From contig CM120647.1 of assembly GCA_051362555.1 (NCBI GenBank), positions 10,416,001 to 10,480,000 on the forward strand: a DNA stretch of 64,000 nt. The letters run 5' to 3'. Below are positions 38,913 through 63,971 of this stretch, in pieces; the stretch's first letter is position 1; each line of letters opens with the position of its first letter. The translations under genes and the position numbers were made by a program. The DNA comes from Lingula anatina. Lineage: Eukaryota > Animalia > Brachiopoda. Below the pieces are notes generated by a model. The model searched no databases. It was not told the origin of the DNA and saw only the letters and a list, made by a program, of their open reading frames with translations.

Positions 38913-41900
38913 ACACACAAACACACAACAAAGTCAGGAATACGGGAATAAAGTTTGAGTAAAAGTATTTTGCAGCTGTTGGAAGCTAGCCGTAGTAGAA
39001 TTAAAATTTGTTTAGCAAAGCATTTGTGTAAAGTTAATTATGCTGAACTGAGTGAAAGCATAGGCTAAAGCAGACTACTGCAATTTTGGATTCTGATTTC
39101 AAATTTATCTCTAGCTGAACAGAACAATTCATTTACAAATGAAAATTTTCTGTCAAAAATAAAGAACAGAGATATCAGGAGATCATCAATTAATGCTTTT
39201 ATTTTTTCCTTTTTTTTAGGTTTTTAAAAGAAGATTTTGCCAAATATGCTGTAAACATTGAGAACTGTGTCTACCTGGACGACTGCACCGCTCCAGTGTC
39301 TAACTGCATTATCAATGTACAAAATGGATCAAGAACCATCCTACACAGCAACAAGTACAGTAATTACTCAATCTTTTCTATGCAGTAAAAGCACCACAGA
39401 AATGCTTTATAGAAATATAGTTTTGTGATTATAAAATTATGTATCTGAAAGTTTGATAATTTTTGTCCATTGAAAACACCGAGTCATTACCATAGGAATT
39501 CATGGCATACTATACAGACAGGTTTAGTGGTGGTGGGGATTTGCCAACAATTTATTTGCCTTACGCCTGACTGTTTTGTGCAATTTGCATATTTTTTTCA
39601 AAAAAAAAATTTTTTTTCAAATTTTTTTGCTTGAATAATGGTATTTTACCTTCTAGGAGCTTGCCTGAGTTTTCCTACAAAGACTTCCAGAAGATTGATC
39701 TTAAAAAGCAAAAATACCAGTGGGTCCATTTTGAGGTAAAACTTTGAATAGAAAAGAAATAAAATAGTTTTTCTTTTCATCAGATTATTTATTATTCAGT
39801 AAAAAGTCATTAATAGTTTGTTTGTATTTATTACATGGTGATATATAAACTTTAATAGAGTGTCATCATCATCATCATTGCTCTTCGTCCCGCGTGGGAC
39901 ATAAGGCCACAGTCACTTCTTTCCATTTGGCCCTGTCTCTGGCTACGTGCTGGGCCTGTCCCCATGTAAGGTCCCCCTCCCTCAGCTCTGCCATTATTGT
40001 TCGGCGCCAGGTGGTCTTGGGCCTTCCTCTCTTTCTTTTTCCGGGTGGTGTCCATCTCAGAGCTACCTTTGGTACTCTGTTCTCGTCCATCCTAAGTACA
40101 TGGCCGAGCCATTTAAATCGCCGTCGCTTGATCTGCCCTACAATACTCTGGCTCCCTGTCAGTATGTACAGGTCATGATTGGAGATCTTATTTGGCCAGA
40201 ATATGCGGCAGATCCTGCGGAGACACCTGTTATGGAAGGACTCTACTCTGCTCATGTCAGACTTTGTAAATAGAGTGTGGTTATGGTAAAAACTTGAAAA
40301 TTTCATCATTTAAATATTGATTAATATTTTTAATTGCATGAGTCTTACATGGCCATATTAGGTGATGAACCTTTCAAAAGTATCGAGAGGGCCATTTTCA
40401 AGTTTTACTGAATTTTCAAATTGAAAAAAAAATTCATCAACAGAGAATCGCCTTCCCACAATATTTCCAAGAATTACTACAATTTACGCAAGTCTGATGT
40501 GCCTCCTTCCTACCCAGGGTCGCCCCAATGTCCCAGATATTTCTAGTATGCTTCAAGCCATAGACAGCCATAATAAGGCACATCCAGATGAGAAAATAAT
40601 TACTTCAGTGGAGCTAGAGAAGACCAGGATGGAAATAGGTGAGACAATTCTGGATTTGTTTGTCTTAAACAGGAAATTAAATAAGTTTTCCATAAATATG
40701 GCAATTTTTGGACAGGAGAAGAGCAGGATAGAAATTGGTGACATTAATTTAGCCTGTTAATCTTCAACAGCTAGTGAAAAATTATGTGACAGATAAGACA
40801 GGCATTTTGTTAAATATGACACTTATTGGCAGGCAGTGTGTTAGAAGTTTTGACATACAGAGAACATCTATACATTGTGTTAGATGTGACATGATAGCAA
40901 TACATTCAGTGTGTTAGATGTGACATGATAGCAATACATTCAGTGTGTTAGATGTGACATGATAGCAATACATTCAGTGTGTTAGATGTGGCATATGATA
41001 GCAATGCAATCAGTGTGTTAGATGTGGCATATGATAGCAATGCAATCAGTGTGTTAGATGTGACATGGTAGCAATGCATTCAGTGTGTTAGATGTGACAT
41101 GGTAGCAATGCATTCAGTGTGTTAGATGTGACATGGTAGCAATACATTCAGTGTGTTAGATGTGACATATGATAGCAATGTATTCAGTGTATTAGATGTG
41201 GCATATGGTAGCAATACATTCAGTGTGTTAGATGTGACATGGTAGCAATACATTCAGTGTGTTAGATGTGACATGGAAGCAATGCATTCAGTGTGTTAGA
41301 TGTGACATGGTAGCAATACATTCAGTGTGTTAGATGTGACATATGACAGCAATGTATTCAGTGTATTAGATGTGGCATATGGTAGCAATACATTCAGTGT
41401 GTTAGATGTGACATGGTAGCAATGCACTCTGTGTTTTACAACATGACATATGATAACGATGGATTCAGTGTGTTATTTGTGATGCCTCTAATTTTGTACA
41501 TGTTTAAATTAACTATTTTATTTTCTTCCAATGTTTCAGTACCTCTCTTAGATAAAGCAGATTATGTATTTGTGAGCAAGGAGCATGCTCAGATTCATGG
41601 TTACCAGTGTAAAGAAGACACTGTGGAGGGATTGGGCACAAAAATAAGAGACAGGTACAACACAAGGCCTCTCCACTACATCTCCTTCCTCCAACGTGTT
41701 CAACCCTCTCCTCACCCCCAACCCCTCTCTTCCAACCTCTCTCTCCTCCACCCCTCAAATCCAACCCCTTTCCAAATTTAAGTGACAGAATGTGCAATTA
41801 ATCTTATATGGATTCACCTTATTTCATTCATTAACCATACTCTTGTTATTATTTGTGTGTACGTGTTTGGGAGGGGGACTTGTTTTTTGATTTCATAGAT

Positions 41901-42256
41901 TACCCTACAATTCATTCATTTTCAAGTATAAATTTGCTAAATTACCTAAGTTAAATTGATTTTGTAAATTAATTGGTTATTTTTTCTTGTTCATCAGCTC
42001 AGTGATAATTTGTGCCTGGGGGGAGAGTGGCGCTTGTGCCAAACCTAAACATGGACCAATAGTGGCATCTCCAATTTTTCCACCAGAGGGCGGTGTGGTA
42101 GACACTCTAGGTGCTGGCGACTCATTCAACGCTGGCGTCATATTTGCCCTGAGTAGGGGGAAAATGTTACAAGAAGCTGTGTCATTTGGGTGCCTAGTTG
42201 CTGGAAAAAAGTGTGGATTTCGTGGATTTGAAGGTCTGAAAGGTTTTCCTCTTTGA
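37706..42256 (+). CDS. KHK: Ketohexokinase (fructokinase, PfkB family)
   Basis: Exons 37706-37812 (IACCGLTCCDFI..FPLEDSDQR), 38706-38822 (WQRGGNASNTSTVL), 39220-39354 (NGSRTILH), 39657-39735 (YQWVHFE), 40518-40638 (GRPN..SVELEK), 41540-41654 (DYVFVSKE) and 41998-42256 (CAWGE.GA..VVDTLGAGDSFNAG); phases consistent. Confidence 0.95.
38855..38910. repeat. (CT)n microsatellite
   Basis: Seen directly. Confidence 0.9.
39863..40268 (-). mobile_element. 5'-truncated RTE-clade LINE in KHK intron 4
   Basis: FHNRCLRRICRIFWP..RRRFKWLGHVLRM..PKVALRWTPPGKRKRGRPKTTW C-terminus, (GAT)n tail, and an AATAGAGTGT direct repeat on both flanks (TSD). Confidence 0.9.
40877..41425. repeat. Minisatellite with a 34/36-bp unit (GTGTTAGATGTGACATGGTAGCAATACATTCAGT), about 16 copies
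   Basis: Head-to-tail tandem copies with minor variants and no spacers; in KHK intron 5. Confidence 0.95.
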
Positions 42257-44128: not shown

Positions 44129-45060
44129 TGTCTACTCTGAAAACTACACAATTTAAAACGTTAAAATAAGTTTTTTTAGCCATCAGATATATTGTTCTAT
44201 AACTTCAACAACTCACAAACTTTTGAATTTAAATTGTGCTCTTTTTGATGCATTGTTATTGGTCGACCCTGAAAATTTCTAGTCTTTAAGTAGAAAAAGT
44301 TTTCATGTTATCAATTAATCAAAAACACACCGGCACCTATCAGAAGTCACATAGGCTGACACAGCATTTTTTGACTGAAGATTTAATTTTTTTTTTTTTT
44401 TGACATGCCAAAACTAAAAAGGGTAGAGTCATGAAATTTCCAGCATTTATAAAAAAACAATTTATCTAAAATATTTAAAATTAATTGCAATACCTCCAAA
44501 ACTGCTGAAGTTATTAAACTTTGAAATAAGTAATTTTTCTATTAAGTCACCTAATTGAGACATTTTTTAAAAATATGTGATATGGTTTTAAATTGTAAAT
44601 AGATAAAAACAGATACAAAATCATACTTATAAATTTAAACAATAACATAGCAAGTTTGATTGAAAACGTGGACAGTATAAAAAATATCAAGGAAACTATA
44701 ATTATAAAACTACAAGAGTACATCTATATAAACATTTATGAAGTAGAAATAATAAATAATGGTCTGTTCTGCTGTAAAATTTGTAAAATTAAAAAAAAAT
44801 TAATGTATGCATAAGACATTAAAAAAAAAAAATTACATAAAATTTGAACTGAGTTATAAGACTAGTGCAATAATTAAGCAATGTTCTTGAGATGATACAA
44901 ATCTTGCAAGCCCTAATCATTTATATTTGACAAAATGTATCAAGGTTTGTTACATAATTGTTTTGGTTCTGACAATTCTTAACATAAAAACATCTTAGTC
45001 TCCTCTTGTCCATTGGTCTACTGTTATGGTTGCAAATCCACTGCAGGAGTTCAATAGTTA

Positions 45061-45295
45061 GGGACCATTCCCACAGATATTTGGATCGATCTATCTCCCT
45101 GGGGAGTCTCACTAAATTTTTGTCAACTTGACCAGCTTAAATGTCTGTCATGCCTAGTAAAGCTGTTTGGGGATAGTTATCTTTATCCCCTAGCTGATTG
45201 GGTAGGCGTGACAGACATTTAAACCGGTTATTTGATAGCAATTTAGTGAGACTCCCATGGGAGTTAGATCGATCTCTAGGCATGGGAACCCACTC
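45061..45295. mobile_element. MITE family A copy inserted in the terminal coding exon of the HELZ2-like gene
   Basis: GGGACCATTCCCA...TGGGAACCCACTC flanked by TTA/TTA; inverted relative to the copy at 8222. Confidence 0.85.
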
Positions 45296-48200
45296 TTAGA
45301 ATGTGCTGTGGTGAATGCGGATAAAAAAATTGATGTAGTTCAGCTTCTCTCACTTTCAGTTTATTTGCACAATCAGAAAGGTTTTCATCTAGTAGTGCTT
45401 TACGTAAAGTAGAATATGGACGTTTGTCCATTTCTGCCTTCAAAATAACATTTAACAGTTTCCTGTTTGCCTCAGTCATTGGCCCATTAAATTGATCTTC
45501 TTCATAATGTTCTATCATCCCAGCGGCCACCAAATGGTTCCTCATCATTTCTGGGTTCATTGTACAAATCAAATAACGAAAACTACTTATAATTTTCAAC
45601 TTCTCAAGCTTATATCGGCATGCTTCCTAAAAAGGAAAATTTAAATAACTTTGTCATAATTTAAAAATCATTAATGGTTGGTATAAATCAATAAAGCCAT
45701 TGACATGCATTTGTTTTTCATATGTGGCAATGATTCCCCGTTTTGTGCCATCAAATCATTCCCCTGAAGAATTACCCAATGTGCTTTTCTTAAATACATC
45801 TAAAAAAATCCATTATGTTTTATCATGATAAATTACAAGAAGAATATAATACAGTGCAAACATTGATAAGTCATTATATTTTCATGCAAACTCAATGGGG
45901 AATAATTCAACTAATTACCTTCACTTGGTTGATGATGTCTCCTTCAAGAAGAGCTTCATTGCATAAATCCATGCATAAGAGATACAGGCGTCTCACATCT
46001 CCCTTTAACAACGTATTGAATATGACTTCCATGGTGACAACATAGGGGATGGGACAATTTGGTGGACCATTTAGATGTTTCAAAATACCTCCCCAAACAT
46101 TGACCTTTTTAAATTCATCACTTAAAGAATCCCACAATTCACATGTAATGAACTGGCTGTCAGACTGAGCTGCATATTGTTGACCGTGTGCTGCACCATA
46201 CTGAACTAGTGACCCCTCAAAGCTTTGTTCCAAAGAGATTTCAGGATTGACTGATCCAGAGACACTTTCTGCCAATTCTACAGTGTAAGGCAATTCCCTC
46301 CTAGAATCATGTTCTCCCTGTCTGACTTTTGGTCGAACATCTGGTGATTTTACTGCGGTCTGCAATGTCCCATTTGGCATCAACTGATAATGGGAGTTAA
46401 TATGTTCTGACACTGAATCTCCTCTTCTTGTAAAGGATTCTTCCAGCTCTTTCCTTGTTGTTTCTTCATTTTGTGGTTTTCTTGGCCCTTCATATGGCAA
46501 TTCTGAATTCCCATTCATTTCTCCATATTCCAAAGACTGTTCAAAAGCTTCTTTCCTTTGTGTATTTTCATCACGTTTGGCATTATGATTTGAAACTAAA
46601 TTTCTGTATTCAGAATGATTACCATTTGGCAGTGCCTTTAAAGAATCACCAGCCATAAGGAGCTGAAAAATATTTCAATGCATTATGCAACAGTTGAAGA
46701 AAATTATAGCATTAAAAGAGACCAATTTTCAAAGTGAAAGGACATATAGACCTCTTCAGTCCATTCGCAGATTAGATCAAAATAACAGATTGTGCATGCA
46801 GCACCAAAAATACAAACAATATGTGATTTAATTTCATATCTTGATTTAAGACATATATCGGTAATAATTATGATACTCCACAACATCTTGCTGAAATTTT
46901 CTATGGACTAGTTTTGAAGCATACCCAATTTTTTGTGATTTAATTTTCCACACTATACTAGTATCGATTTGATCTCTAGGTTCGTTAAGTCAATTAGAGA
47001 CATGGAGATTCAGCGCAAGAGAAACACTAAACAGATATACCAGAACAATTGAAAAATACAATTCTATGTGAAAAAGCTATAAAAGAATCAAGCTGGTGGT
47101 ACTTATAAGAGTAACCAATTATACATGCAGATCTACCGTAAAAGGTACCTGTATAAAAAAAAGGGGGGCTCATACATTATCAATTTACCTCTTTAAGCAT
47201 CTTTGTTATTACTATTTTTTTACAGGTATTATCGTCATTTTCCAGTTGAGCTTTGTATATCTTTATCTCACACTCAATGACACTGGGGCACTGGCCGTCA
47301 GCAGGCTCCAAACGAAATACTGCACGTGTATCTATATCTTCAACTAGATCCAAATAGCTGACTTCCTGGAATCAGCAAACAGTTCATTCACACACACACA
47401 CATATATATAACAGCTAGAATAGCTAGTTATTGTTATCATACCATTTAGCCCTTATCAAATTTGTGGTGGAATTTCCAAATGTACAAATACCAAGTTGTC
47501 AAACTGTTTCCACTTGTAGATCAATAACTTCAGAAGTCCTGCAGTTATAAAGTACTGGGCAGTAATACCACTTCAGAAATTCTACATTAACACATTTGCA
47601 GGATGGAAGACTGAAAAGATCTTTAAATTATTAGAATTATGTTATTTTCTACAATAATGATCACTACAGTAAAGAATTTAACACTGAAGTTATGTTCTTT
47701 ACTACCTGAATATGATCTTCTTTTCTAGTTAATTTCCAACAGTTTTCAAATTCACCAATTTCCAGACAAAGTCCACTACATTCCTTGTGATGTTCACACA
47801 AGTATACAATGATACAGCGATAGTCAAGATACTTGAACTGCAATTTTGACATTTCTTTTTCAAGTTTCTGCAAGAAAAATAAATGCAAAAAAATGTAAAA
47901 AGCGACTGATAAACAACTGAGCCAGCAGAGGCTGTTAAATGTACAACACTGGATCTGTAGCACTCCATTAACGTGACAAATGACGTATTAAAAAAAATAA
48001 TCCTTCATTTCTTATTCTATGTCTGTTAAAACATTAAAATATGACCAAATGTTGAGCAATTACATGAAGCAATTATGAATATACCTCTCTTTCATCTGGC
48101 AGATCTGCTATGCAGTGAACATTTAGATTAAGTTTTCGTCTTTCTACATCATACAATTGCCCATAGGCTTGCACCTGCATCTTCTTTTTGTTGCATGAGG

Positions 48201-49897
48201 TGCTGTGTTTGGTAAAATGGTGCAGGCCAATTATACACCTGTTGTGTAGGAACATAGAAAAATAATTGTCCTTCAGCAGTTTCCAGTCACAACATTCATC
48301 AAACCCCGTTTCTGAGCTCCAGATGTTTTTTTGGGTATTTAGTCCATGTACATCAGGAATGCAGTGACTGATGGTTAAGAAGATCATCTTTTTAAACATC
48401 AATCCATGGGGCTCACAAAATACCACAGGGGATGTTTGTGCCTGATCAGGACCAACTGGGAGCTTGTCTTGTTCTCTTCTGGTAATCCCCAGAGTTATCA
48501 ATGTTTGGCTTTCTAAGGCTCCTGGTGGTACATACAAGGAAACCCCTGTTCCAGGGAGAGTCAAAATACCACCCTGCTCATCCACCCAGAACTGGTAATA
48601 GTATAGTTCACCAGCTATGTTGCTTTCATAGTCAAAACATGGAGGTGTTCCTGGAGTGCTCGTTCCTGAGAAGGAAAACAAAGAATTAGCTCTATCCTAA
48701 GTAATACTATGTAAATGTCCACAATGAGGCGCATTTTTCTATATCTTGGGATTATCGCCATTGTAACTATCGGTCATGTAGATTGGTAAAAACTCCACGG
48801 GGACTCTAGCTGAATGCAGTCAGATTAGCAGATTAAAACGCGTCCTCCTGGCATTGAGTAGAATACAGAAAAGTTGGTAATCATATATGACTAAGGGCGC
48901 ATTCCAACAGATTTTAGATCGATCTATCCCCATGGGGAGTCTCACTAGATTACTGTCAGATAATCCGGCTTAAATGTCCGTCCAGCCTACTATAAGCTGT
49001 AAGGGGGTAATTAACTTTCGTGCCCGCTCGGCTGACAGCTATTTAGCAGGGAGTTAGGTCAATCTAGTGTGGATCGATCTAATTTCTGGGAATGTGGTCT
49101 AAGTTGGAAACAAGAGCGTATGCATCTGTTAATCTGATTTCATTCAGTGAGAGTCCTCGGAAGACCAGTAGTTTCATTGGGAATGAGTTGAGGATCCTTA
49201 TTTACCTTTTCAACTTTTTCATTTAATTTTTTTAAACCATCAAAATAATAATTTCAAAGAACTCTGTTTGAAAATTACAAGTGCAGAGATGGGTTGAGCA
49301 GTGTTTCACAAAAAAAAAAAAAAAAAAAAAAAAACGACAAATGCTCCCCCCCCCCCCCCCCATTCTGGCATGTTTATCTCTAACTTACTATCATATGTAA
49401 ACAGGTACAAGGTAGAATAAATGTTTACAAAATGGAATTTCTTACCTCTACTCTGAGAAGACAGCGAACTATTTATAGTCCCTGTGCTTGTTGATAAACT
49501 GGCCACTTCAGTATCTATATACAAAGAAATTACAGTTAAATCTGTTGAAAATCATATCAGTAACAATGAACTAATGAGCAAATAAATAATTTATAAACAA
49601 AAAAATGATAATTACAATCAACACATGCTAGTATTTGATTTTTCGTCAAATTATTTATTTTCAAAAATTATTCACTAGTTTTGCTGACATGAAATATCTT
49701 TCCTATGCCAAATTGGTCAGAATTATTCATACCACTGATATTCGGTGTCTGTGTGTGTTGAAATGACTGTCATGTGTAATATTTACCTTACCTACCTGTA
49801 TAATTTTCCTCATTTAAATTCATTTTAGGTTTCACATGATCTCTAAACATTTCATGGTTTCTAAATCTGGGTGGAAGGTCTGCAATGAACTTCTTTC
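45276..49897 (-). CDS. ZU5-UPA (FIIND-like) + death-fold + CARD-like module, probably the C-terminal part of the HELZ2-like protein
   Basis: Exons 49897-49796, 49514-49446, 48665-48085 (ZU5: VDEQGGILTLPGTGVSLYVPPGAL..SPVVFCEPHGLMF..LTISHC; HHFT), 47867-47706, 47365-47189 (UPA-like), 46662-45919 (linker plus helical death-fold-like segment) and 45626-45276 (CARD-like: FRYLICTMNP..NHLVAAGMI..EANRKLLNVIL..LRKAL..SDCANKL). All GT-AG, phases 1,1,0,0,0,0, no stops. Confidence 0.8.
48895..49099. mobile_element. MITE family A copy nested in a family B element
   Basis: GGGCGCATTCC...GGAATGTGGTC with TAA/TAA TSD. Confidence 0.75.
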
Positions 49898-50493
49898 CTA
49901 CAAGAAACAGTCATTTATGGATGCAAAATATTTAGCAGTATCACTTTATTGATTTATCAGTGTGGATGCATAAAAGGAAAGACCAGGTATTGCTATAAAA
50001 TTAATTTTATAGTAATTGTAATTCATCAAAGAGATAAAATAATGATTAGTTCAAAAATATGGAAAATTCCTCTTAAAGATAGAAAATTGCCATTAAGATG
50101 AGTTCAAGAACTGTTTAAAAAGCTGTCAAGCAACTTTCCTTCTTTCTTTAGAAGCAAGTGGGCAAAATTGGACATAATAAAACATCAAAGGATGTTTTTT
50201 GCTTTTGATGAGCCATGATCATCTTTCCTACTTGTTATATTTCACAGCAGTTTGGGGGAAAATGAAACAGACATGAATGAATAAATTTTTTATTCAATTT
50301 AACAAAAAAATAAATAAATGAATATTTAAAAACTAAACACCCTCAAACATTTTATTTGAAAGTTGTACAAAATAACAGCATAAAAATAGATAAATAAAAG
50401 ACTTATAAGATTGTTTAAATCAATTTAAGTATTAAACTTAAAAAGAAAGCAAACATCATTTTTTATTTCTTATTCAAAATAGACATTACTTAC

Positions 50494-53400
50494 TATCTGC
50501 GAACATTTCATATTGGTCTTTAGGTGTTTTCCTCTTGGGTCTTTCTATTAGAGGCATCTCTATCTCTTCAGGGAGAAAATCCTCAGCATTTACAACACAT
50601 CCCTTTTCCTGGTAATATTCCAACAGTGACTTCCATACTTTGTCAACTTTAAGCAGATTGTCATTTCCTGAAATAATATATCATTCACATGGAATTCCTA
50701 GTTTCCGCAGTAAAAGCTCATGTCTGAAAAATGCCTACAGACATATACTGGAGCTTTAACATCCCTTTATTCTGGAATATATACCCAGTACCACCCAACA
50801 AATTACTGCAACCAAAACTACACTGTAAGATGCTTAATGAAAGCAGCTACTTTTTGCCTATAAATACATTGTAAACAACTCTTTAAAATATAATAAATTT
50901 TATTTTATCAGTTAAAGCAGAAATTCTGAAATTTGTGGTTGTCACGTGACCTCCATAGATGTCTACACTCTGTAATAATCACTTAAGAGAATATTATAAA
51001 AAAAAACTTTTTAGAAAAAAAACAAGGACTAACTTTGAATGTGGAAATGGATTCATTAACCATTGGTACGTATGGAAAAATTATCCTTTATCCTAGGAAA
51101 ATCCATTGTTTGGCCAAAATGAACAGTTGTTATCTTTATAAATATCGATGTCTACCCAACTTTTTTAAAAGTGCTTATTTTACAAAAGCTGACAAACATA
51201 TTAAAGTTGAATTTTCAAGCAAGATTTTTAGGGGTCAACATGTCAAGTTATTAAGGTAGTAATTAACAGTAAATTGTCAAAATTTGGGTGTTTTTCTGAA
51301 TTTGTCAGTATTAGATAGATGAAATATCAACTACATATCAGCCTATCTTAAAATAATGGAAGTTTACAAATAAACACGTAATTTTAGCCTAATTGCTGAT
51401 TTACCCCTGTGGTAGCGTGTCTGAGTTTTAAAGTAGGTTTCACTTGTCCATATATGTGTTTGATTGGCAGCTCCACTGTGCAGCTGTATATTTCCCGTAC
51501 TAGATTGCTGCTAAGCCTTTCACATTCTGTGAGTAACGTCGCGCTTTCACTTGCTAAACAATACTTTTCATTTTGAATTTATCAGTGAACTTAATTCTGA
51601 TGATCTGTTAAAGCTTTAAAAAGCAGACATATAGATGAGACGTATATGGGCAAAGGCACTCCCCCTAGGTGTCACGTGGTGAAGAAGGCTGAGGTCACGA
51701 CTAACATGGTGGCTGCTGTCAATGCATGGAGGGGGCCTCCGGTTGAAAATGTTCAATAATAATGTTGAAAATGGATGAAAGACATAGTGACAGTTACATA
51801 GGCAGTGAGTAGAGGGCTGAACCAGTTTAAATAACTAAATTTCTCAGCTTGCCAATGCAGCTCACTGATTATATAACGTTGGAATCTCCGGGGAGCACTA
51901 AAAGGCTGATTTCTCCGCTTCAGTTTATGGCTTCAAGAGAACGATTTAGACCAGTGTCAAAATAAATTAGAACTCTCAACCGATGAAAGCTGGTATTCAT
52001 TCATTAGATCTAAGGTTTGTCTGAAAGTATGTGTCTGGGATTTCATAACATCAGCTCCGTTTTCAACTTAGGCATACTTTAGTTAGGCTAGGGGGTCTCG
52101 TTGAACTGGAAACCAAGTTTATTTTGATATCTCTGCTAATTTAACACATATCGCTAATTTGAGGCGCATTCTTGTTGATCCCTATGAGGGCTCACAAGTC
52201 AAGCTGTCTACACATGTCCATTTGTAGTGGACTTCTAGTTTTTAAGGTGTAAAGATTATGTTGAGCACACCTATTAAGCATTATATCTCATTACGTAACG
52301 ATTACATAATAAAATAAGGATATGAAATGAAGAGCTGTTGAAATAAGCTTTCTATTGATATGTAACATGTTGGTATATCTTGGCCGGTTTAGAAGATAGC
52401 TACCCCTGTTATCTACATCCTTAAGTGTATTATCTTGAAGCTATAGTTGAGTTGGGGGAGGGTTAGGTGGTTCAAATGCACTGCCCTTTTGGTCAGAAAG
52501 GTTGGGTCACCTAGGAGGGAGGTAAAAAGCTACTTTTTTGATAAAGTACCTGGTCTCCATTCTGAAATCACCGACTATACAGACTTGTCTTAAATGTTGC
52601 CCTTACCAACAATAATGAGTCCCTTCTTTGCTCTTGTTAGTGCCACATTGACCTGGTTAGAGTCTATGATAAAACCAAGGTTCTTTTTGCGCCATCCAAG
52701 AGTTGGCCTCTCAAGTATATCATAGTCTGGGAGAGAACGAACTGTGCTCAGGAGTACATAGTCCCACTCCCCACCTAAAGTGATAATAAATTTTAATTAC
52801 ATTGGATTCCGTTCTCTACATAAAGATGTATGGTATTTTACAGCTGCAAGCTAGGCAAAGGTGGAGTATTCATGAAAAGAGCATTTAACATAATATGCTT
52901 AACAATTACATATTATATGAGTAATAATAAAACAAGTGATAACAAAATGGGTATTCATATAAAGAACGTTGAAGAAATGATGTTGTTGAGAATAAATATA
53001 TACTTCAAACTTATATTGGTGGTCATGCGCTCCATCTATTGAAGAACTAAGTAATCACAATGTACATTAAGTAAGTAACACTAACACTTATTATGCTTTC
53101 AAAACAATCATTAAAATTTCAGTAAAGCATCAACAGTATAAATACCCTGTGCTCCTACTACAGTGCTGACATTTGGGTAAGGTATTATTTTTTCCAGTTC
53201 TTTTTTTATAGCATACACCTGAGCTTTGTACTGGGACAGGACCACAATATTGGAGGGTTCAATGTTGTGTTTTGTGACTAGATTTTTGTACATCCGCACC
53301 TGAAAACAATTGATAACAATGTACTGGTAGGAATGCATCTGTCAAATTAAAAGTGAAAGAAATCATACAATAAATGATTATGAATCAGGCTAGCTGTATA

Positions 53401-56400
53401 ATAAAAGTGGAATGTTTAGCATTTTAAGTTCACACAGCAGATGATATTTATCACATAATGAAGCTTACAACATGTTTCATTTCATCTTCGTTGCTCTTAG
53501 ATCTCTCACTCCCTTCACGTGTGGCAACAGGCAGGGTTGTCTCCTTTCCTTCAGTACAGCAAAATACAATAGCTTGGGGCTCGTCCCTTCCTGACCAAAT
53601 TTCCAACTCTGGTGACTTTCCTTTCAGTGATGAATCTGTCTCTAGTTTTCCCCCATAAAACTTCTCTGATGGAAACTGGCATATGGTTTCATGCTAAAAG
53701 CAAAAGTATGTAAAGAGTAAATTAAGGTTAGACCCCATTTCTATAGATTAGATCGATCTACTTTAGATCAACCTAACTCCATGGGGGTTCACGCTAAATA
53801 GCTGTCAGCCGGGCGGACAAAGTTAATTACCCCCTTACAGCTTGTAGTAGGCGGGACGGACATTTAAGCCAGATTATCTGACAGTAATCAAGTGAGACTC
53901 CCCGCGGGGATTGATCGATCCAAAAGCTCTGGGAGTACAGCCTTAGTCTTTCAGTCTGGCAGCTAGCTAATGATGACATTGTTCTAATTGACACTTTTAT
54001 AGAGCAAGCTAAAACATCACAATTAAAGTAATAAGTGGCAGACTGACAGCTATTCTTAAGCTTACCATTCTGTACTGAGTTTTAAGCATCATAGCCTTAT
54101 AGGAGTATCTTTCAAACAATGACAAGGCAAGACCCAGATCACTTGCTGCTTTCAGAGGAACCACTGGACGTAACTGACGATGGTCTCCGAGAAGGATTAC
54201 TTGGTAAGCATTTGAAGCAACTATTGGCACCATTGTTTCTGGTTCCATGCACATTGCTGCTTCATCTATCATAAGCTGCCTGAAGTTTAAACCAGTCAAT
54301 TTCTGGCTACCACTGACAGAGCAGGTACAGAGGATGACCTCCGCTTGCTGTAGAGCCTCCTGTTCTGCCTTGGCCACTGTTGCTTTATATTTTGTCACAT
54401 CTTCATGGGTTACAAGAAGAGGTTCCGTTTTGAACATCTCATCAAATTGAAGGATCTTCTTGCTATAACGGTTTGAACATTCCCTGATCAAGTAGTGAAG
54501 ACTCTGAGGTATGCAGTGAACATCAATTTCAGTGTCATCCTCTTCATCTCCATTCGTAGACATTTTTTTCCATGATCTCCTGTGTACAGGTTGGGTAGGA
54601 ACGGGAAAATCTTGGGACACAATTGTATCACTATACACACGAACAAAGTTTGGACAAATGTTTTCCTTGTCTTTCTGGTTAAAATGATACATCATCATAG
54701 CTAAAAATAATATTATAGAAATTTAAAAAAATCAAAATTACAAAAGAAAAACAGAAAATAAATAAATTGTCCACTACAATTTCAAAATTAATGTTACTCA
54801 AATAAAAGATTGCATTTATGCATTTAAATTAACAAAAATAGATCCATTCCTGTGACAGGTTTTGATGGTTAATGAGGTGGAAAAAGACTTAAATGAAAAA
54901 ACAAAAATTTACGCTCGGCTGTTTGGGTGTGCATGCATGTGTGCATGTTAAAAGTTTTACAAAACTTTTAAAGTCAAAATAAATGAGCTGCTTTTTGTTC
55001 GACAATGTTCTGCAGAAGAATTATCAAAGTGAAGAAATCTGTAACCTACATGCTAAATGGTCCAAAGATTTGTTAGATGGCCCACACACCAAGATCTTTG
55101 GAGAAGTGTCAGGATCTGCATTGTTCAACCCTTGTTTGTTCCATTCATTCAAGATGTACAACATGTTAAGTGCTGTCCAGGTTTTGCCAGTTCCTAGAAA
55201 ATGACAGGGTTCTCCATATCATTTTTAATAAACAGTTATAATAAAGTACAATGGCTGAATATTCCATGATTTCTTGTATGTGTCACAAAAAAAAAATTAG
55301 TAAAAAAAGTTTTCACCTACATCAGCAAGTAATTTTGATCTTGGTAAAAAGGTTTTGACTGAGTGGGGGTACTACCTTTCCCTAATACACATTCTTAGTT
55401 TCACATAAATTATTCATAGCAACTCACATTTCCAAAAGGGTTAAAAAATTCTGGTCACAGTAAGTGTCCATGTTTATAATTCTTTCAAGTAATAAATGTT
55501 AAAATTCATAAATATGACGAATGTAGGTTTGGCATTTAATCGCACAATAAGCTTCATTTTGACGAACAAAACAAACCCCTGCATGAGCATGATAAATTTT
55601 TTACCTGGTGGCCCTTGTATGAGTGAAAAAGGAGAATTCAGTGCTTCAGTAACAGCGTTCTTCTGACTAAAGTTCATTTTTGCAATGTATCTTTCTAGTT
55701 TCTTCTGGCTGTCTTCAATGAATTCTTTGGGCACTTTAATCCCTGTAAAAGATAAATTGAAGCTTTTGCTTAAGAGAGAACATCTGTGACATCATGGTAG
55801 CAAAGCAATTTTTTTAATCCTTAAATTCTGAAATAATATCTCAAAACCTTATATTAGTACTGATTCTGACTCCACAAAGAAACAAATTACCATTCCTTAA
55901 ATAATTTAATTTGAACTGTATGGTAATAGTATCAACAAACAGCATGAGACCATAAAAACTGGCGTCTGCACTGCAATTCACTTCTCCACAACTTTAAATT
56001 TCATTAAACTCTTTCCAGCTAGGTTCTTGCTCTTATTTACACCTAACTTACAGTGTACACCTCTTTGATAACAATACTTCAAGTAATGTCTGCTTTGATA
56101 AATTTCTGTTGAGTGGAGATCATATAGAGAAATAATATCCTGTATTAAATTAAAAAAAAAAAAAACACATACTTACACTTTTGATAAATTATAGTTTTGC
56201 CCCAAACCCTCTCAACTGTACCCTGTATCACATACCTTCCCTAGTTTTGTCAATATCTGATAAGTTTCCAGTTGCAATGCCTTTTGCTAATGTAGATGCC
56301 TTGTCTAGATTCTCAATGGCATGTTCCATCCTCCTTTAAAAATAAAAAAATCAACTTCAATGTTGCACATTAGGTTATAAAAACATCATCAACGAAAAAG

Positions 56401-59400
56401 GCTACATATATAGAGAGTTCATTTAACAAATTGTCACAAACATTAACATTACCATAAATAAATATCTCAACACCGTATCTTTAATCAATATACAATATAT
56501 ACTCAGAAAAACAATACATACTTATCTGTTGAAGTCTTTGGAATCACTTCTAACGTACACACACTTGGCTGCTGTAGCATTTTCTCTGTAGGGTGACAAG
56601 ACTTATCATGTAGCTTAAAATGAATGTAACTTCCTTGCTCTTTCACACCAGTAATCACTCCATGTCCAGTCCAGATGTAACTTTCACCTTTGTCCCTCTC
56701 CCCCATTTGTTCCCTCTCTCCATAAGTTTGTGCTGCAGCTGGAATCCTTGGGCAAATGATGCACAAATACTCTGAAAAATGCTCCAGGTCATTGGTTTCC
56801 TCGCTGTCACTTTCATCTTCATCCTCATCAGCATCAGAATCTTCCACTTCATCTCCGTTCACATCTTTCATGAAAAAAATATGTCTTTGCTTGCAAAACT
56901 CTTTACCGAGGCTAAACTGACCTTTGTATACTGGCAGATTATTTTTCTCATCTTGTATCCAAGTGATTTTAACATTGTTTATGTAAAAAGATTCATCAGA
57001 CTTGACTGCTTCATAGGCAGACTCCATGGAAAGGATTGGGCGCCAAATCTGCTGGTATTCATCTATGTCACGGTAGCGTTCTTTGCTAGCCTTACTGGCC
57101 ATATCCTCGAAACATATAATAGGGTTCTCTTTATGGTGCACACACAAATGAAACTGGTCAGTCAAACTCAAAATCTGTACCCTTGGACGTAGAAATCCTC
57201 GTTCAATCTCAGCTGTGAAAAATAACTTTAAAACATCTCCCCCTTTAAGCAATAGAGAAAACTGTTTGAAGTGATCAAAAATCATTCCGCCACCTGGTGA
57301 TTCTGAGGTTAGATAAGGATCCACTTGCCTCCGTTTCACATTTTTCACAATTTTCTGAAGAAAATTTTTTGACCCATCTTGGTCCCCCTTCACGAATTTG
57401 TCTAACATGATCTGCCAATCCCTGCCTGCAATCTGACGGACATGCCTTTTTGTATCAAGTTCTGTTTGGCTTACTGATAATGCCTGGCTTTCATTTGGTA
57501 TTTGGTCATAAATTCGCTTTCCCCAAGCCAGCACAGTTCTTGCTTTATTATCCTCTGGCAATTCAGGCTTTTCTTGCAAGGAAAGGGATGCATATTTGAT
57601 TGTTTCACATCTCTTTGGGACAAAATTGTAATCTGGATTTCTGAACAGAATGTGGTCTTCTTCCATGGCCTCTACTATTGTATAATGAGGCCTTACAGGG
57701 TCACTGGACAATTTAAAAGCATAGGCTAAACAATCACAATCCTTACTAAAATGTTTCTGTTTCAGTACACCAAGATTGTAGAGATGGCATATTTTCTGAA
57801 CTGCTTCTGAATTATATGGGGATGCCATGTTCCCCAAATGTGCTTTCAATAATCTGTGCACAATCAGATCAATGTATCTGCGCACTGGAGAAGTAAACTG
57901 GGTATAAGGTCCTATGTTCATTCCAGAGTGTACTATTTCATTAGGTTTAACATAAGCAGAACAAGTGACTCTTCGGTGCATCTGAATACTGAACCACTGT
58001 TGTAATACATGGGCATGCTGAGGATGCTTTTGCTCCTGACAAACAAGAGTGAAAGCGGTCTTCCAGTCATCACAATTAACAGCATTCTCTATTGCTTTCC
58101 ATATGTCTTCCTTTATTTCAACCTTAGGCATAACATATTGTGGAACATTACCAAGACATGGCAATTGTAATCTATGGGGGTCAAAGTAAAGCATATTTGG
58201 CAGGAAATGCTTGAAGTTATCTTTCCAAATGGTGTATAATTCTTCCCTTGGAGGAAGATGTTGCACCAGAATTGTGCTGTCAGGGTATGCCTTCAAAAGG
58301 ACTCCTGCCACATGTTTGTTTGCTTCTATCATCCACTCTTCCACTAACTGGTGGCTCTTAAAGTTTGATGAATCTTGCAAATGGTCAGCATCATAAAGGA
58401 AAAAAGCTCCGGTTCCTAAACGCTTAATACGGAGAGCATGTGACAGGTCATAAAGCATTTTCACAGGAAAAAACTCCTTGGTTGTTGTCTGGTCTTCAAT
58501 TATTTGCTCCACTTCATTGTAATTCAAATTTTTGTTACAACATATGACAGATTCCACAATGCTAGGCTCTTTGGTGAATAAACCATCTTTGTTTATGGTG
58601 AAAATAACAGATATTGTCAGCTTATCTTCCCCACTGCGCAAACTACAGAGATCTTCACTAAGTCTTGGAGGCAGCATGTGATAGGGCTTGTGATCTTCAC
58701 AATTGGGGTAAAAAGTTACACTGCGCACAATGGCTTCCTTGTCAATGGCTGCCTCAGCCTCAACATAATACGCAACATCTGCAATGTGCACAATGACTTG
58801 AAACTCGTTTTCATTATTTGTTTCCTCACAACTCAATGCATCATCAAAGTCTTTTGCATTCAGTGGGTCAATGGTAAATGTGTAGATGCTCCTGAAGTCT
58901 TTTCTAGAGTCTAATTCATTAGATGGGATTTTATAGTTATTGCCATAGATTGTGTGTAAAAGCTTTCTACTTTGTGCAGTGAATTGATGGGTCAGACGGT
59001 ATTGGATTTTCAGCAACTCCAGCCCATTTTCCAATGAATTTGCTGCTGGTTTCACATCTACCACCACTCCCAAAGGATATCGGCAATGATCTTTCCAGGT
59101 AAGATATCGCACAATGAACAGCCTGTTGTGCTTGCTCTGGGGTTTTATCATTTCCGTGTATACTAATTCCATTTTTGCTTCATTGTCTCGTCCTTCCTTT
59201 ACTCTGTATACACTGACAGAATTTTCCCCACCATGTTTATTGAAAATCACTACCTTGGGCATTGTTTTACAAATAGGTTTCATCAAAGAACAGTTATAGT
59301 CATCAACACTACAGATGAGTTTGTACTCTTTAGGTAGGGGTAGGTGGGCAAGGACACCAAGGACCCTGCCTCTTTTCACAATTTCACCTGTAGAAGGGTC

Positions 59401-62400
59401 AACAGGATCTATTGGCAAGTCAAATATCTTGACCACAACTTCTTCACCACTAAAAGCTTGACCACAACGCTGTCTTCCATAAATCTTAATTTTGTCCACA
59501 GATGCATCTCTCTGAACTGGAATGCATGTTGCTTCTTGTGATGTGTCTATCTGGAAAATACATCTCTTGTATCTGTCAGGATCTTCTTCAAGTTTCTTTC
59601 TTAGTAAATGTGGCTCCAAACATTCATAATATGATTTTAGACCTCTGCTGCTAAAATAATCTGAACACATGTCCCCAGAACAGTCAGACTCCTCAGAATA
59701 TGTGTCAATATCCAAATAACTGTTCTGTAACCATTCATCTATGCGTTTGCGTTTGTCACCATACTCTATATCTAAAATGCTTCTACTTTTAAGGGGGATC
59801 TTGGCGGGTTTTTGGTCATACTCTTTTTGCAAGGCTTTCATAATAGCATCAGTGTCAGGATGTTCAATATCTGACTCTGCATAACCATCTCTGCCAACTG
59901 GACAGGGAGAATTGCTTCTGGATGATTCTGTTTGTGTTGAACAAATGGAAACCTCACTCCCACTATACTGACTATAGCCAGAGCTGATTCCAGAATCCTC
60001 TGAAACACTTGATAATACTGTATCAGAAAAGGTGGGACTGTCTGGACGCATTTTCATGGTATCTTGCATTTCATTTTCAGACATAATATAACTGTGAAAC
60101 TGTTCCAAAGACTTTTCAATCCACTGAAGGTTTACATTAGCAGGTTTCACACCTTCATGCTGTGCTGATATATCCAAGTATCTTTTCCACACACTCTGAC
60201 ACAAACCAACTGAACATAAGGCAAGAGGATCGCCGATCACCATGACAAGAGATCTGGCTCTTGTAAAGGCAGTATTCAGAAGTTTTGGGTCTGACAATAC
60301 TCCCAGATGATGACCTTTTTGTTTTTTATCACTTACCAGTTTTTGTTTTGTACAAACTGTACTCAGTAGTATGGCCCAGTATTCAGTGCCTAAAAAATAT
60401 CAGCATCCGTAAATATTTACCATTGCCTTAGACCCCTTTACCACACCTATATCGGATCGGACCTAAAAGGATCAGTCCATCTCCAAGAGTTTCTCCCTAA
60501 ACTGCATTCAGCTTAAGTGACTCTGATGTCTGGCACACCTACTGAAGCTGTAAGGGGATATCGCTTAGTAGCTTCAGTAGGCATACCAGGCATCAAACAA
60601 CTTAAGCTAAACGTAATTAGCAATGATCACCTCAGAGATGGGTCAATCCTGCTAGATCGATCTAGGTATGGGAATGGGGTCTAACAATCAAAAGTACTTC
60701 TTATGGCTATGAAAAGGCATTATTTTGTTTAATTCAGATATAATCAAACCTACTTTGTGTGTCAACAAGCCCTTGGGTATTAAGATTTTTATTACACTGC
60801 ATACTTAATGGAAAATAAATTTACAAAGAAATTACAGAACTGGTAAAACAGGAGATTGAATACAACTGATATGATTGGATGAAAATGGCCATTGCACATA
60901 AAACTTAATAATTACCCTGGGCATTCTCAATTACATCCACAACAACTTTCTTAGAGTGGTGGCCAAGGTCCTTCCCCTTGAGAGCATTTCTGATACACTT
61001 CACCTGCAAAATTTATTTTCATTTGATGTGCATATCTCGATCATTTTAATTTGCCTATTGTGCAAATTCGCTTGAAGAATCTGTGTCCTTGATACATTAT
61101 GTACATGCATGCAAAATGCCAACAAATGTGAAGAAAAGTCACAGATGAGAAATATGAATAAATTGGATACTGGGATATACTGAGACCATTCACTAGACCA
61201 TTCACAACAAATGTGAAGAAAAGTCACAGATGAGAAATATGAATAAATTGGATACTGGGATATACTGAGACCATTCACTAGGTAAATGACCTGTTTAAAC
61301 TGAGATCCCTTTCTTGTTCAATGTTGGCTTTTCCAACCATTCCCAAATGGCTTCTTTGATGCCATGTTTGACCCACTTTTATCCAATGGGTAAAAGAATG
61401 TTTACTATACACTAGGGCCCGTATTCCAAGATGTTCCTTAAAATAGGGCTAAGGTCAACTTTTATAAAGGCTTCCTTTGATGAGATGTTCCTTGGTAAAG
61501 GAAGGCCTAACGAAATGGTATTCTAAGACCACACTTTAGCCTCTCCTTTGATAAGGAATTACTTTGACAAAAGTCAGCCTTTAGGTAAGGGACACTGACA
61601 TAAAGGAGCTCCTCATTGGTTAGAGTAGGCATTTGTGACACCCTCCTTGTTAAAAATGCCTCAGTAATATTGTATAATTGGGGTCAACTGATCAACTTCA
61701 TTCATGCAACAGCGCATATGGACATTATCACTGCATTTGGATTTTTTGATCTAAGCCAAATTTAGTGAACAAAGCAAATATGGCAAGAAGAGAACATAAT
61801 GGTTTGGAGGATGAGAAAACCAAAGTCGTAGACCCCTTTCTGATATCGAAAAAGCAGCTACTGATGCAACTAGTCAACAGAGAAAAGCCTATCCTCGATC
61901 AAACCCCTGTTTGTTTGTCTGTCTTTTTGTTACCTCCACCAAGTAGGTTATGTTTTCATCCCGTTTGTTTGTCTGTCTGACTGTCTGTCTGTTGGTTTGT
62001 TTGTTTGTCATCAATATAACTCAAAAAGTTACAAGCAGATTTTGATGAAATTTTCAGGGTAGGCCAGAAATGGGATATATTTGAAGTGATTAGTTTTTGG
62101 TGGTGATCAAGATCAATAATCAATCAATTATCATTAATAAAAAAAACTCAAAAAGTTATGGACCGATTTTTATGACATTTACAGGGTAGGTCAGAAATGG
62201 GTTAACTTAGAAGTGGTTAGTTTTTGGTGGTGATCAAGATCAATAATCAATAATCACAAATAAGTCAAAAAGTTATACGTCGATTGTGATGAAATTTTCA
62301 TAAACTGTCACAAGTGGGCCAAGGAACAGATGATTCGTTTTTGGTGGTGATCTGGATCAATAATCAATCAATAATCAAAAATAAAAAAACTAAGTCATTA

Positions 62401-63971
62401 TTGAATGAAAATTGGGTGGAGACTTCACTCTCGGAGTGCTTTTCTAGTTGAATAAATTGATTTTGAATTTAGGCAGGCATGTTGGTTTATATAGTCCTCC
62501 GTGGAGCTGATTTTCACAAGAGAAATGTACACGATGGCTGCTTAAGGAAGACTAAAGTTACTCCAGACCAACCTTACATTATGAGGAATCCTCAGGCGAA
62601 AATAAAGGAAATCTTTAAGAAAAGCAGATTCTAGAAATGACCGATTCCTTTGCTAAGGATTGTTAAGTGATTCCTTTCAAGTGAGATAAAGAAAGGTCTT
62701 GGAATACAAATGTTGTATAAGGTCGACTTTAAGTCTCCCTTAACGCTGAAGGGAGATTCTGGAATACGGGCCTAGATATTTATTTGATACAACTTTCCAG
62801 TGGTTAAAAACTCTGCTACCCTCAGGATAACTATCCAGAGGTTTACAATTTTATACAAAAGATAGTGTTATCCATAGAATAGTGCTATCCAGTATTAATG
62901 AAACTGGGACCAGATGACCAGTCCATCCACATCATTTACCCAGTGAAAGGTCCTAGGTTGAGACCACAATGTCAGTTAGTTGCTGTAGGAAAGTTCCAGT
63001 ATCAGAGTCATTCATATTTCTCATTCTTATTCTACTGGAGTCATTCATATTTCTCATTCTTATTCTACTGGATGCCTCACAACATTTACTCAAGTTACAG
63101 GTATGACAAGAAAAGAATCACCGAAATGTGAATAAAGGTGCAGAGTGACATTTCCTGTAGTCTGCAATGTGGGAATTAGAAGCTTATATTTAAAATATTA
63201 CTTACCTGTTCATAGTATGGAGTAAGAATAGCTATTCCATCACTGTCCATTTGCTCTGCCAAAGGCCATGATTTAAGGAGCTTCTCAGTTTCACTGGCAA
63301 TTGCTTCTGCTTCTGCAATGTTATAGTATGACATACCGCACTGGCTGAGTTCCTGCTTTCCTTGAACCATACAAAATGATAAAGGAAAATAACCTTCAAA
63401 ATGTGGAATTTCTCGTCTTGAACATAATTTGGTTTTATAGAATACATCAGAGACAAAGTCCAAGATTTCCCGGCAATTTCTGTAGTTCCCCGAAAGAACA
63501 ACTTTGTACTTAGTGTCTTTTCCTTTTTCGTAAAGCCTAAACAACCTCTGAAACATGGTCTGCTGAAGCCAGGGTCGCACAGCATTGCAATACACATTTG
63601 GGGTTACTTGCATATGGTCACCAGTGAGACAAAGTACTGTGTCTTTGTTGGCCAACAGTAATGGAATCAGACTTTCTGGTTCTATTGCTTGTGCTGCCTC
63701 ATCTATCAAAATGTGTGTAAACTTCCCAGACACACTTGTATCAAACAGCAAAATGGAAGACTTCAGTGTAGTGATAATGATGTTGCTTTTTTGTAGCCTG
63801 GATTCACTGGGCAAGGTTAGTTTGGTATCATCATGTTCACAATACTGTAAAATGTCTGTGCGGACATCGCATATGGACTTTTGGTCTTCATAAACCCTCA
63901 GAACACTCACTGTTTTCCCCCTTTCTTTCAGGAAGGGTTGCAGGTACTTCAGAATATAAATATCAGCAGCA
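50494..63971 (-). CDS. HELZ2: HELZ2-like protein: SF1B (UPF1-like) helicase 1 - RNB (RNase II/R) - SF1B helicase 2; 5' end lies beyond the window
   Basis: Exons 63971-63206 (FTHILIDEAAQ, LTGDHMQ, NYR), 61003-60916, 60389-56522 (LNTAFTRAR; RNB FTIDPLNAKDFDDALS, VHIADV, YTQFTSPVRRYIDLIVHRLL), 56333-56236, 55742-55605 + 55193-55050 (LIQGPPG|TGKT), 54700-54066 (IDEAAM, GDHRQL, QYRM), 53693-53469, 53299-53146, 52774-52607 (NQVNVALTRAK) and 50667-50494. Confidence 0.92.
53731..53942. mobile_element. MITE family A copy
   Basis: TTA/TTA TSD; the internal sequence is the inverted counterpart of 48895-49099. Confidence 0.8.
60431..60681. mobile_element. MITE family A-related copy
   Basis: GACCCC...GGGGTC termini with TTA/TAA flanks, an internal palindrome (CCTACTGAAGCT..AGCTTCAGTAGG), and similarity to the copy at 10099. 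Confidence 0.7.
61120..61281. repeat. Two-copy tandem duplication of a ~77-bp unit (period ~85 bp)
   Basis: CAACAAATGTGAAGAAAAGTCACAG...GAGACCATTCACTAG occurs twice. Confidence 0.85.
61416..62772 (+). mobile_element. PIF/Harbinger deletion derivative with a Myb/SANT-like ORF remnant
   Basis: TIRs GGCCCGTATTCCA...TGGAATACGGGCC and TAG/TAG TSD; frameshifted MARR..F..EK.LLMQLVNREKPIL at ~61780-61900. Confidence 0.8.
61925..62447 (+). mobile_element. Non-autonomous Helitron/Helentron-type element nested in the Harbinger derivative
   Basis: Starts TTACCTCCACCAAG.AGGTTATG, has a (GTCT/GTTT)n microsatellite, about three internal ~120-bp tandem repeats, and a 3' hairpin CACTCTCGGAGTG followed by CTAG-TT. 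Confidence 0.65.
63005..63072. repeat. 33-bp tandem duplication
   Basis: GAGTCATTCATATTTCTCATTCTTATTCTACTG occurs twice. Confidence 0.85.

Follow-up and report, generated by a model that had tools for sequence, protein, structure and literature searches.

This analysis concerns a HELZ2-like gene on the minus strand of a 64,000-nucleotide stretch of the Lingula anatina genome (contig CM120647.1 of assembly GCA_051362555.1, positions 10,416,001 to 10,480,000), referred to below as the window, in which all positions are counted. Its best gene model, as read from the genomic sequence, is a single polypeptide in which the helicase and RNB nuclease regions of HELZ2 are followed by a ZU5 domain, a UPA-like region and a CARD-like domain. 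Eighteen GT-AG exons, separated by 17 introns and running from 63971 to 45276, encode 2,880 residues in a single open frame; the 5′ part of the gene extends past the window end, and helicase 1 is visible from motif II onward only. The parts of the gene are as follows.

63206–63971, minus: exon 1 in the window, second half of helicase 1, motifs II–IV (Pfam AAA_11 1.8e-14, AAA_12 5.7e-15; motifs)
60916–61003, minus: exon 2, helicase 1 motif V region (exon chain, motif alignment)
56522–60389, minus: exon 3 (3,868 nt), helicase 1 motif VI, an acidic/Ser-rich linker, OB_HELZ2 (59622–59347, Pfam 1.1e-22) and RNB (58905–57832, Pfam 3.2e-69)
58840–58869, minus: RNB catalytic motif, all four aspartates present (alignment with 12 HELZ2 proteins)
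50494–56333, minus: exons 4–11, helicase 2 (Pfam, exon chain, motifs), with exons 4–7 at 56333–56236, 55742–55605, 55193–55050 and 54700–54066, and exons 8–11 at 53693–53469, 53299–53146, 52774–52607 and 50667–50494
49898–50493, minus: junction intron, 596 nt, 25% GC, with a read-through stop at 50486 and four coding-strand AATAAA
49796–49897, minus: exon 12, phase 1-1 linker exon (exon chain; present in the RefSeq model)
49446–49514, minus: exon 13, phase 1-1 Ser/Thr-rich linker exon (exon chain; present in the RefSeq model)
48085–48665, minus: exon 14, ZU5, the HF/T motif and the start of the UPA-like region (Pfam ZU5; UNC5B 3g5b)
48211–48219, minus: His-Phe-Thr, candidate autoproteolysis site (model residues 2359–2361)
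47867–47706 and 47365–47189, minus: exons 15 and 16, remainder of the UPA-like region (colinear with the UPA of a Nematostella protein, P0189)
45919–46662, minus: exon 17, a polar linker of about 170 residues, then a helical segment of about 80 residues from 46155
45276–45626, minus: exon 18, probable CARD (about 45593–45333; Atlas, PDB sequence matches) and stop codon (45278–45276)
45059–45297, no strand assigned: palindromic, MITE-like repeat of about 240 bp, TAA-flanked, which gives the gene its last six codons and stop

Along the gene, Pfam places AAA_11/AAA_12, OB_HELZ2, RNB and a second AAA_11/AAA_12 in this order, and the arrangement that defines HELZ2, an RNB domain preceded by an OB fold and flanked by two Upf1-like SF1 helicases, is present. 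Helicase 2 keeps motifs Q, I, Ia and II–VI intact in an alignment with 12 HELZ2 relatives, identity to HELZ2 relatives is 25–35%, and the gene places among HELZ2 proteins in both trees described below. Judged by its sequence, the window gene is a genuine member of the HELZ2 family, its nuclease and helicase motifs being intact. Human HELZ2, induced by interferon, is a 3′-5′ exoribonuclease whose helicases aid the degradation of structured RNA; the same source deals with the role of the four RNB aspartates, records the family also in corals and molluscs, and describes Upf1-like helicases as monomeric (PMC10516660; statements from the literature, here and below, refer to parts of the cited texts). 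Oyster Helz2 rises upon herpesvirus infection (bioRxiv 10.64898/2026.05.15.723513). The human protein and the Lingula gene share helicase 1, the OB/cold-shock fold, RNB and helicase 2 in the same order. The Lingula gene keeps the four RNB aspartates, whereas the second of them is replaced by Asn or Ser in two mammalian HELZ2 proteins, and it differs by the 754 residues that follow helicase 2.

Domains of the tail

The identity of the ZU5 domain, as proposed by the sequence-only reading that preceded this analysis, is certain from sequence comparison: Pfam matches it at 48591–48355 (E 2.1e-17, 63.6 bits, cutoff 21), and its best PDB match is UNC5B (3g5b, E 4e-9), a ZU5 of the UNC5/ZO-1 type. 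From ZU5 through UPA, the tail is colinear with P0189, an UNC5-like ZU5-UPA-Death protein, over 268 residues with few gaps (pairwise E 7e-14), and the His-Phe-Thr of the tail aligns with a His-Phe-Ser in that protein. PIDD is cut at HF/S after ZU5, and NLRP1 and CARD8 are cut at SF/S; UNC5B has Leu at the Phe position of the motif, and the chemistry of ZU5 autoproteolysis admits Ser, Thr or Cys as the nucleophile (PMC3210808). From this alignment, the tail may self-cleave at HF/T as PIDD1 and NLRP1 do, and a cut there would release a C-terminal fragment of 520 residues. By analogy with PIDD1, NLRP1 and CARD8, we lean slightly towards a ZU5 that cleaves itself and whose halves remain associated.

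The UPA assignment is modestly supported by its alignment. The region spans 156 residues, against 157 in P0189, with z 3.3 or 1.9 depending on the matrix, and its alignment score was equalled by 6 of 2000 shuffles under BLOSUM45 and by 83 of 2000 under BLOSUM62. The sequence-only reading of a UPA-like segment thus retains its colinearity with P0189 and modest support but gains no Pfam UPA match, even at E up to 10, and the same Pfam scan of the tail returned neither Death nor CARD.

By sequence comparison, the last exon probably encodes a CARD. In Atlas, the top cluster for exon 18 is CARD (0.91, 185 shared features, recognition 2526), ten of the ten best family matches belong to one clan, and all seven PDB sequence matches are to the Apaf-1 CARD (E 0.33–0.42). 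A single-sequence AlphaFold model of the exon has a pLDDT of 49, and VIA-align of this model gave no match at Z of at least 5. The CARD-like domain of the sequence-only reading is supported by Atlas and the PDB matches but not by Pfam.

Exon 17 fared differently. A death-fold-like segment had been proposed in the exon from 46662 to 45919, and five tests gave it no support (PDB, P0189 pairwise, Pfam, Foldseek, Atlas). The PDB sequence search with its helical segment returned one match, unrelated, at E 1.8; pairwise comparison with the P0189 death domain gave z 0.2 and -0.9; and the best Atlas matches, at most 0.83, included no death fold. The single-sequence AlphaFold model (pLDDT 51) had the FADD death domain as its top Foldseek match, at E 2.4, and Foldseek with the exon 17 and exon 18 models found nothing at E 0.001, death-fold entries ranking first at E about 2. 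We have dropped the label of a second death fold and describe the end of the tail as a helical segment plus a probable CARD. The tail includes polar linkers of about 100 and 170 residues.

The repeat at the 3′ end of the gene has at least five further copies in the window, with TAA/TTA flanks (about 8208–8426, 10099–10356, 48891–49102, 53728–53946 and 60469–60680), which we take to be of the Tourist/PIF type. Past the terminal copy the frame stays open for another 45 codons (45058–44921), so the protein may once have had a different end.

The HELZ2-to-tail junction

Seven tail exons chaining in phase without a stop had been claimed from the letters, and the chain was reproduced in full. The tail acceptors (49897, 49514, 48665, 47867, 47365, 46662 and 45626) are all AG sites, the donors lie at 50494, 49796, 49446, 48085, 47706, 47189 and 45919, the phases are 1,1,1,0,0,0,0, and the frame runs stop-free up to the TAG at 45278–45276. 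With splice-site matrices trained on ten helicase introns and scored across 50700–45100 (334 AG and 283 GT sites), the eight model acceptors in that interval rank 1, 2, 5, 6, 8, 9, 13 and 28 of 334, and the seven model donors 1, 3, 5, 12, 14, 22 and 27 of 283. The donor at 50494, earlier called perfect, is ordinary but adequate, ATA/GTAAGT scoring 7.7 against 6.5–12.3 in the training donors and ranking 12 of 283. Exons 12 and 14–18 use codons in a coding-like manner: the score of exon 12 is 0.094, with the 99th percentile of the intron null at 0.095, and those of exons 14–18 are positive (0.05–0.24), the intron null having a mean of about -0.14.

A near-identical RefSeq protein, XP_023931638.1 (P0020), is recorded for Lingula anatina as "helicase with zinc finger domain 2-like". 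It was the sole near-identical match when the exon 3 part was searched with HMMER against 1.84 billion representatives, the next best being at most 35% identical; its cluster has one member, and the record name is silent on the tail. Model residues 856–2880 align with it without gaps at 2,022 of 2,025 identical positions (3 substitutions), and the RefSeq model therefore uses the same junction and the same chain of tail exons. XP_ records are computed models. The RefSeq protein begins at a Met inside RNB, past the catalytic motif (window position 58677), and two of the three substitutions fall close to that start; exon 3 of the window is intact upstream.

Two simple dismissals concern the chain as a whole. 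A chance exon chain was rejected by the splice-site ranks and the independent RefSeq model, and a pseudogene was rejected, the 18 exons containing no stop or frameshift.

A more serious alternative is an ordinary HELZ2 with a neighbour, in which most transcripts would run past the donor at 50494 to the stop at 50486, with polyadenylation in the AT-rich intron, and the ZU5 module, over-joined by the gene models, would belong to a gene of its own or to a minor isoform. Several observations lean that way and weigh against a fusion. The junction rests on predicted gene models, the RefSeq entry itself being a prediction; the codon score of exon 13 is no higher than the intron null; and exon 12 has two ATG. 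Read-through at 50494 would add about 30 residues past the helicase, inside the typical HELZ2 range, and 66 of 69 relatives stop near the same point. The junction intron holds four AATAAA, against 1.2 expected from dinucleotide shuffles (P 0.027) and seven per 9,456 nt in the remaining introns; AATAAA is, however, equally common on its opposite strand, which also has four. Moreover, the donor at 50494 is GTAAGTAA, a consensus donor that contains a stop in itself, and the identical eight letters begin intron 1; the stop just past 50494 belongs to this consensus donor. The junction intron has neither CpG nor a strong first exon, the phases of the donor and the next acceptor agree, and RefSeq joins both sides.

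The search for a separate tail gene points in the same direction as these last observations. No convincing first exon for the ZU5 module was found in the three introns upstream, in agreement with the sequence-only reading; there are two weak candidates with an ATG leading to a phase-1 donor, one of which crosses poly-G/poly-T. Stand-alone tail proteins numbered 0 among 420 candidates of 339–2000 aa, and among 5,295 candidates of 30–1112 aa the sole match was the unrelated P0189, in word-based searches that are weak for distant relatives and with short isoforms of more than 1,112 residues outside the second range. We consider the ordinary HELZ2 with a neighbour improbable. The HELZ2-to-tail junction is, on the genomic evidence, very probably spliced, with the spliced fusion possibly accompanied by a short form. 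The claim of one polypeptide carrying HELZ2 and a ZU5-UPA-death-fold-CARD tail accordingly holds for the fusion, which is the best gene model and agrees with RefSeq, and leaves its second death fold unproven.

Relatives and genomic surroundings

The sequence-only reading describes vertebrate HELZ2 as ending after its second helicase domain. In a set of 188 proteins, which includes isoforms and truncated models, 69 have the C-terminus of helicase 2, and 66 of these end at most 74 residues after it. The other three have 430, 640 and 754 residues past the helicase, the last being P0020. The 430- and 640-residue tails belong to two models from the annelid Owenia fusiformis and are unrelated to the ZU5-CARD tail; P0111 (CAH1780780.1) carries the 640-residue tail and differs from P0121, with the 430-residue tail. 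By eye, the P0111 tail has His, Asp and Ser motifs that we take for those of a trypsin-like protease, and Pfam was empty for it at E up to 10.

The two Owenia models are the nearest full-length neighbours of the Lingula gene in both trees, each midpoint-rooted with no outgroup family. In the RNB-region tree (FastTree, 176 sequences of 178 matching, kept or replaced by model), the grouping has a support of 0.97 and includes the exon-only P0027; in the helicase 2 tree (IQ-TREE, 64 sequences), its SH-aLRT is 66. This grouping of sequences is a lead only.

ZU5, CARD or Death joined to HELZ2 was sought in other animals and found in none besides Lingula among the HELZ2 proteins examined. No ZU5, Death, CARD or UPA appeared in 32 other HELZ2 proteins at Pfam thresholds from 1e-6 to 10 (one scan giving the best 25 of 26 families), nor in the precomputed domains of 19 HELZ2 proteins.

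Other parts of the family also vary. The mollusc HELZ2 proteins P0006, P0032, P0036 and P0057 align poorly at the helicase 1 motifs, P0006 having one AAA_11 stretch, and by this alignment the subgroup may have lost helicase 1. A cnidarian and an amphioxus HELZ2 (P0005, P0025) carry N-terminal TPR, and thus the HELZ2 N-terminus is variable as well.

Elsewhere in the window, a gene with several homeodomains lies on the plus strand at 27332–29713 and 33885–34325 (Pfam 8e-9 and 0.024), presumably akin to dve/SATB-type proteins. There is an RRM gene on the minus strand (37472–35781; weak Pfam match, E 0.002), which we assume to be ABT1-like, and a PfkB kinase on the plus strand has its last exon (41960–42256, E 2e-12) facing the 3′ end of the HELZ2 gene. 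Open reading frame fragments at 15200–16200 and 39875–40309 look to us like a Tc1/mariner transposase and the end of a LINE reverse transcriptase.

A proposed releasable tail on an antiviral nuclease, and alternatives

A parallel to the order of these parts is found in NLRP1 and CARD8, whose FIIND comprises ZU5 and UPA and is followed by a CARD (PMC3210808, PMC7857732). The Lingula gene shares with them a large N-terminal region, ZU5, a cut-site motif, a UPA-like region and a C-terminal probable CARD. It differs in that its motif is HF/T rather than SF/S, its ZU5 is of the UNC5/ZO-1 type, about 250 residues lie between UPA and CARD, and its N-terminal part is an enzyme: the NACHT and LRR of NLRP1 were not found by Pfam in 15 exons and P0020, and HELZ2 stands upstream of ZU5 instead. 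With PIDD1 and UNC5 modules it has in common an HF-nucleophile motif ending ZU5, a colinear ZU5-UPA and UNC5B as best PDB match; PIDD1, however, has LRRs and two tandem ZU5 with HF/S, whereas the Lingula gene has one ZU5 stretch and no LRR. Unlike UNC5-type modules, it lacks an ectodomain, any Death domain behind its UPA-like region is putative and the terminal domain is CARD-like. RIG-I-like receptors (RLRs) combine an SF2 DExD/H helicase, a RIG-I C-terminal domain and N-terminal CARDs, whereas here the helicases are AAA_11/AAA_12 and the CARD-like domain is C-terminal. Membership of the NLR, PIDD1 or RLR families was rejected on domain content.

Related grafts are known from the same lineage. 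CARD, DED or caspase domains occur on RLR helicases of Lingula, some of which are expressed (PMC8998645). In brachiopods, TRADD-N adaptors have RNases, Mov10- and DDX60-like helicases and ZU5-UPA as fusion partners; such fusions are very diverse in Lingula, and transposition is their proposed origin (PMC8195603). The lophotrochozoan proteins share with our gene the joining of an RNA helicase or RNase to death-fold or ZU5-UPA adaptors by exon-level grafting; they are either TRADD-N proteins or SF2 RLR helicases whose adaptors are N-terminal, unlike HELZ2/RNB with ZU5. HELZ2/RNB with ZU5 is unnamed in the text of PMC8195603 ("RNB" occurs 0 times), whose source data may list the protein. Consistent with the sequence-only reading, to which the architecture was unfamiliar, HELZ2 with ZU5/CARD was not found in the literature, although death-fold grafting onto Lingula RNA helicases is described there and the Lingula immune-gene survey (Gerdol 2018) might describe it. 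The gene combines known parts in a new way. That the fusion was seen in a single species, in a lineage where such grafting has been described, makes it less surprising.

We tentatively propose that this HELZ2 is specific to its lineage and carries a CARD tail releasable in the manner of NLRP1, a tail that would signal when the enzyme half is destroyed or engaged in infection. NLRP1 cleaves itself into two pieces that stay associated, and UPA-CARD is set free once the proteasome removes the N-terminal one (PMC7857732). In Lingula, helicase exon 11 would be spliced to the ZU5-tail exons, ZU5 would self-cleave at His-Phe/Thr with both halves staying bound, and the helicase-RNB half would degrade structured RNA like human HELZ2. 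Proteolysis or ubiquitin-driven loss of the enzyme half, as a viral counter-measure or following RNA engagement, would then free the UPA-CARD fragment, which would nucleate a death-fold complex containing a caspase or an NF-kB adaptor, such that HELZ2 would be a restriction factor and a built-in tripwire at once. We favour this tripwire or guard model because the domain order is that of NLRP1, the N-terminal position being taken by an antiviral nuclease; the cut, the pairing of the halves, the trigger and the partners are inferences throughout. The candidate HF/T site, to which the sequence-only reading makes no reference, favours NLRP1/CARD8-like release over simple sensing. The RNA-sensing inflammasome or PIDDosome-like receptor of that reading remains a hypothesis.

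Other results pull against this proposal. The candidate nucleophile is Thr, against Ser in the cited cases (PIDD, NLRP1, CARD8), and a motif alone does not demonstrate cutting; the silence of Pfam on UPA, Death and CARD counts here as well, as do the exon 18 PDB matches (E 0.33), non-significant by themselves. The tail was found in no second species, the one protein with it among 166 by phmmer being the Lingula model, and the Lingula and Owenia branches are long, so that their grouping could be long-branch attraction.

Two alternatives accept the fusion and read the tail differently. Intact fusion proteins might act as an uncut, RIG-I-like scaffold, several of them loaded on one long RNA clustering their C-terminal CARD-like domains into a signal. 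The evidence for the fusion (exon chain, RefSeq) serves this version identically, the Lingula RLR helicases provide a parallel, the Leu of UNC5B stands in the closest solved ZU5, and the polar linkers would extend the reach of the CARD. It is set back by the HF-nucleophile motif retained at the exact site, by the poor lasting scaffold that a substrate-removing exonuclease would presumably make, and by the monomeric character described for Upf1-like helicases, and we regard it as unlikely. Equally, a mobile ZU5-UPA-death-fold cassette may have been grafted on recently without triggering death, serving as decoy, localisation tag or inhibitor or simply drifting. Its restriction to one species, a CARD and helical segment too diverged for Pfam, a C-terminal end replaced by a repeat and the diversity of Lingula fusions with their proposed transposition would all suit such a graft; seven exons with good splice sites and a frame open across 2.2 kb of coding sequence speak against it, whereas it adds little weight that the second copy, from which the RefSeq model comes, has an identical 740-residue tail, the copies differing at 3 residues overall. 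This, too, has only a small chance of being correct.

Beyond the releasable tail itself, a wider and more doubtful extension is that the gene represents a guarded one-chain antiviral nuclease with an integrated bait, arrived at in NLRP1 style independently in brachiopods, the C-terminus of this lophotrochozoan subgroup being a site of effector-tail swapping (ZU5-CARD here, a protease-like tail in the annelid paralog). Its scope is that of one species, in a lineage known for shuffling such domains. If the gene is expressed and cuts itself, RNA destruction and death-fold signalling would be directly coupled in an animal that lacks interferon, and the gene would offer a testable case of a ZU5 with a Thr nucleophile. 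If the proposal is true, the release mechanism of NLRP1 would be attachable to an antiviral enzyme, in a guard-type design.

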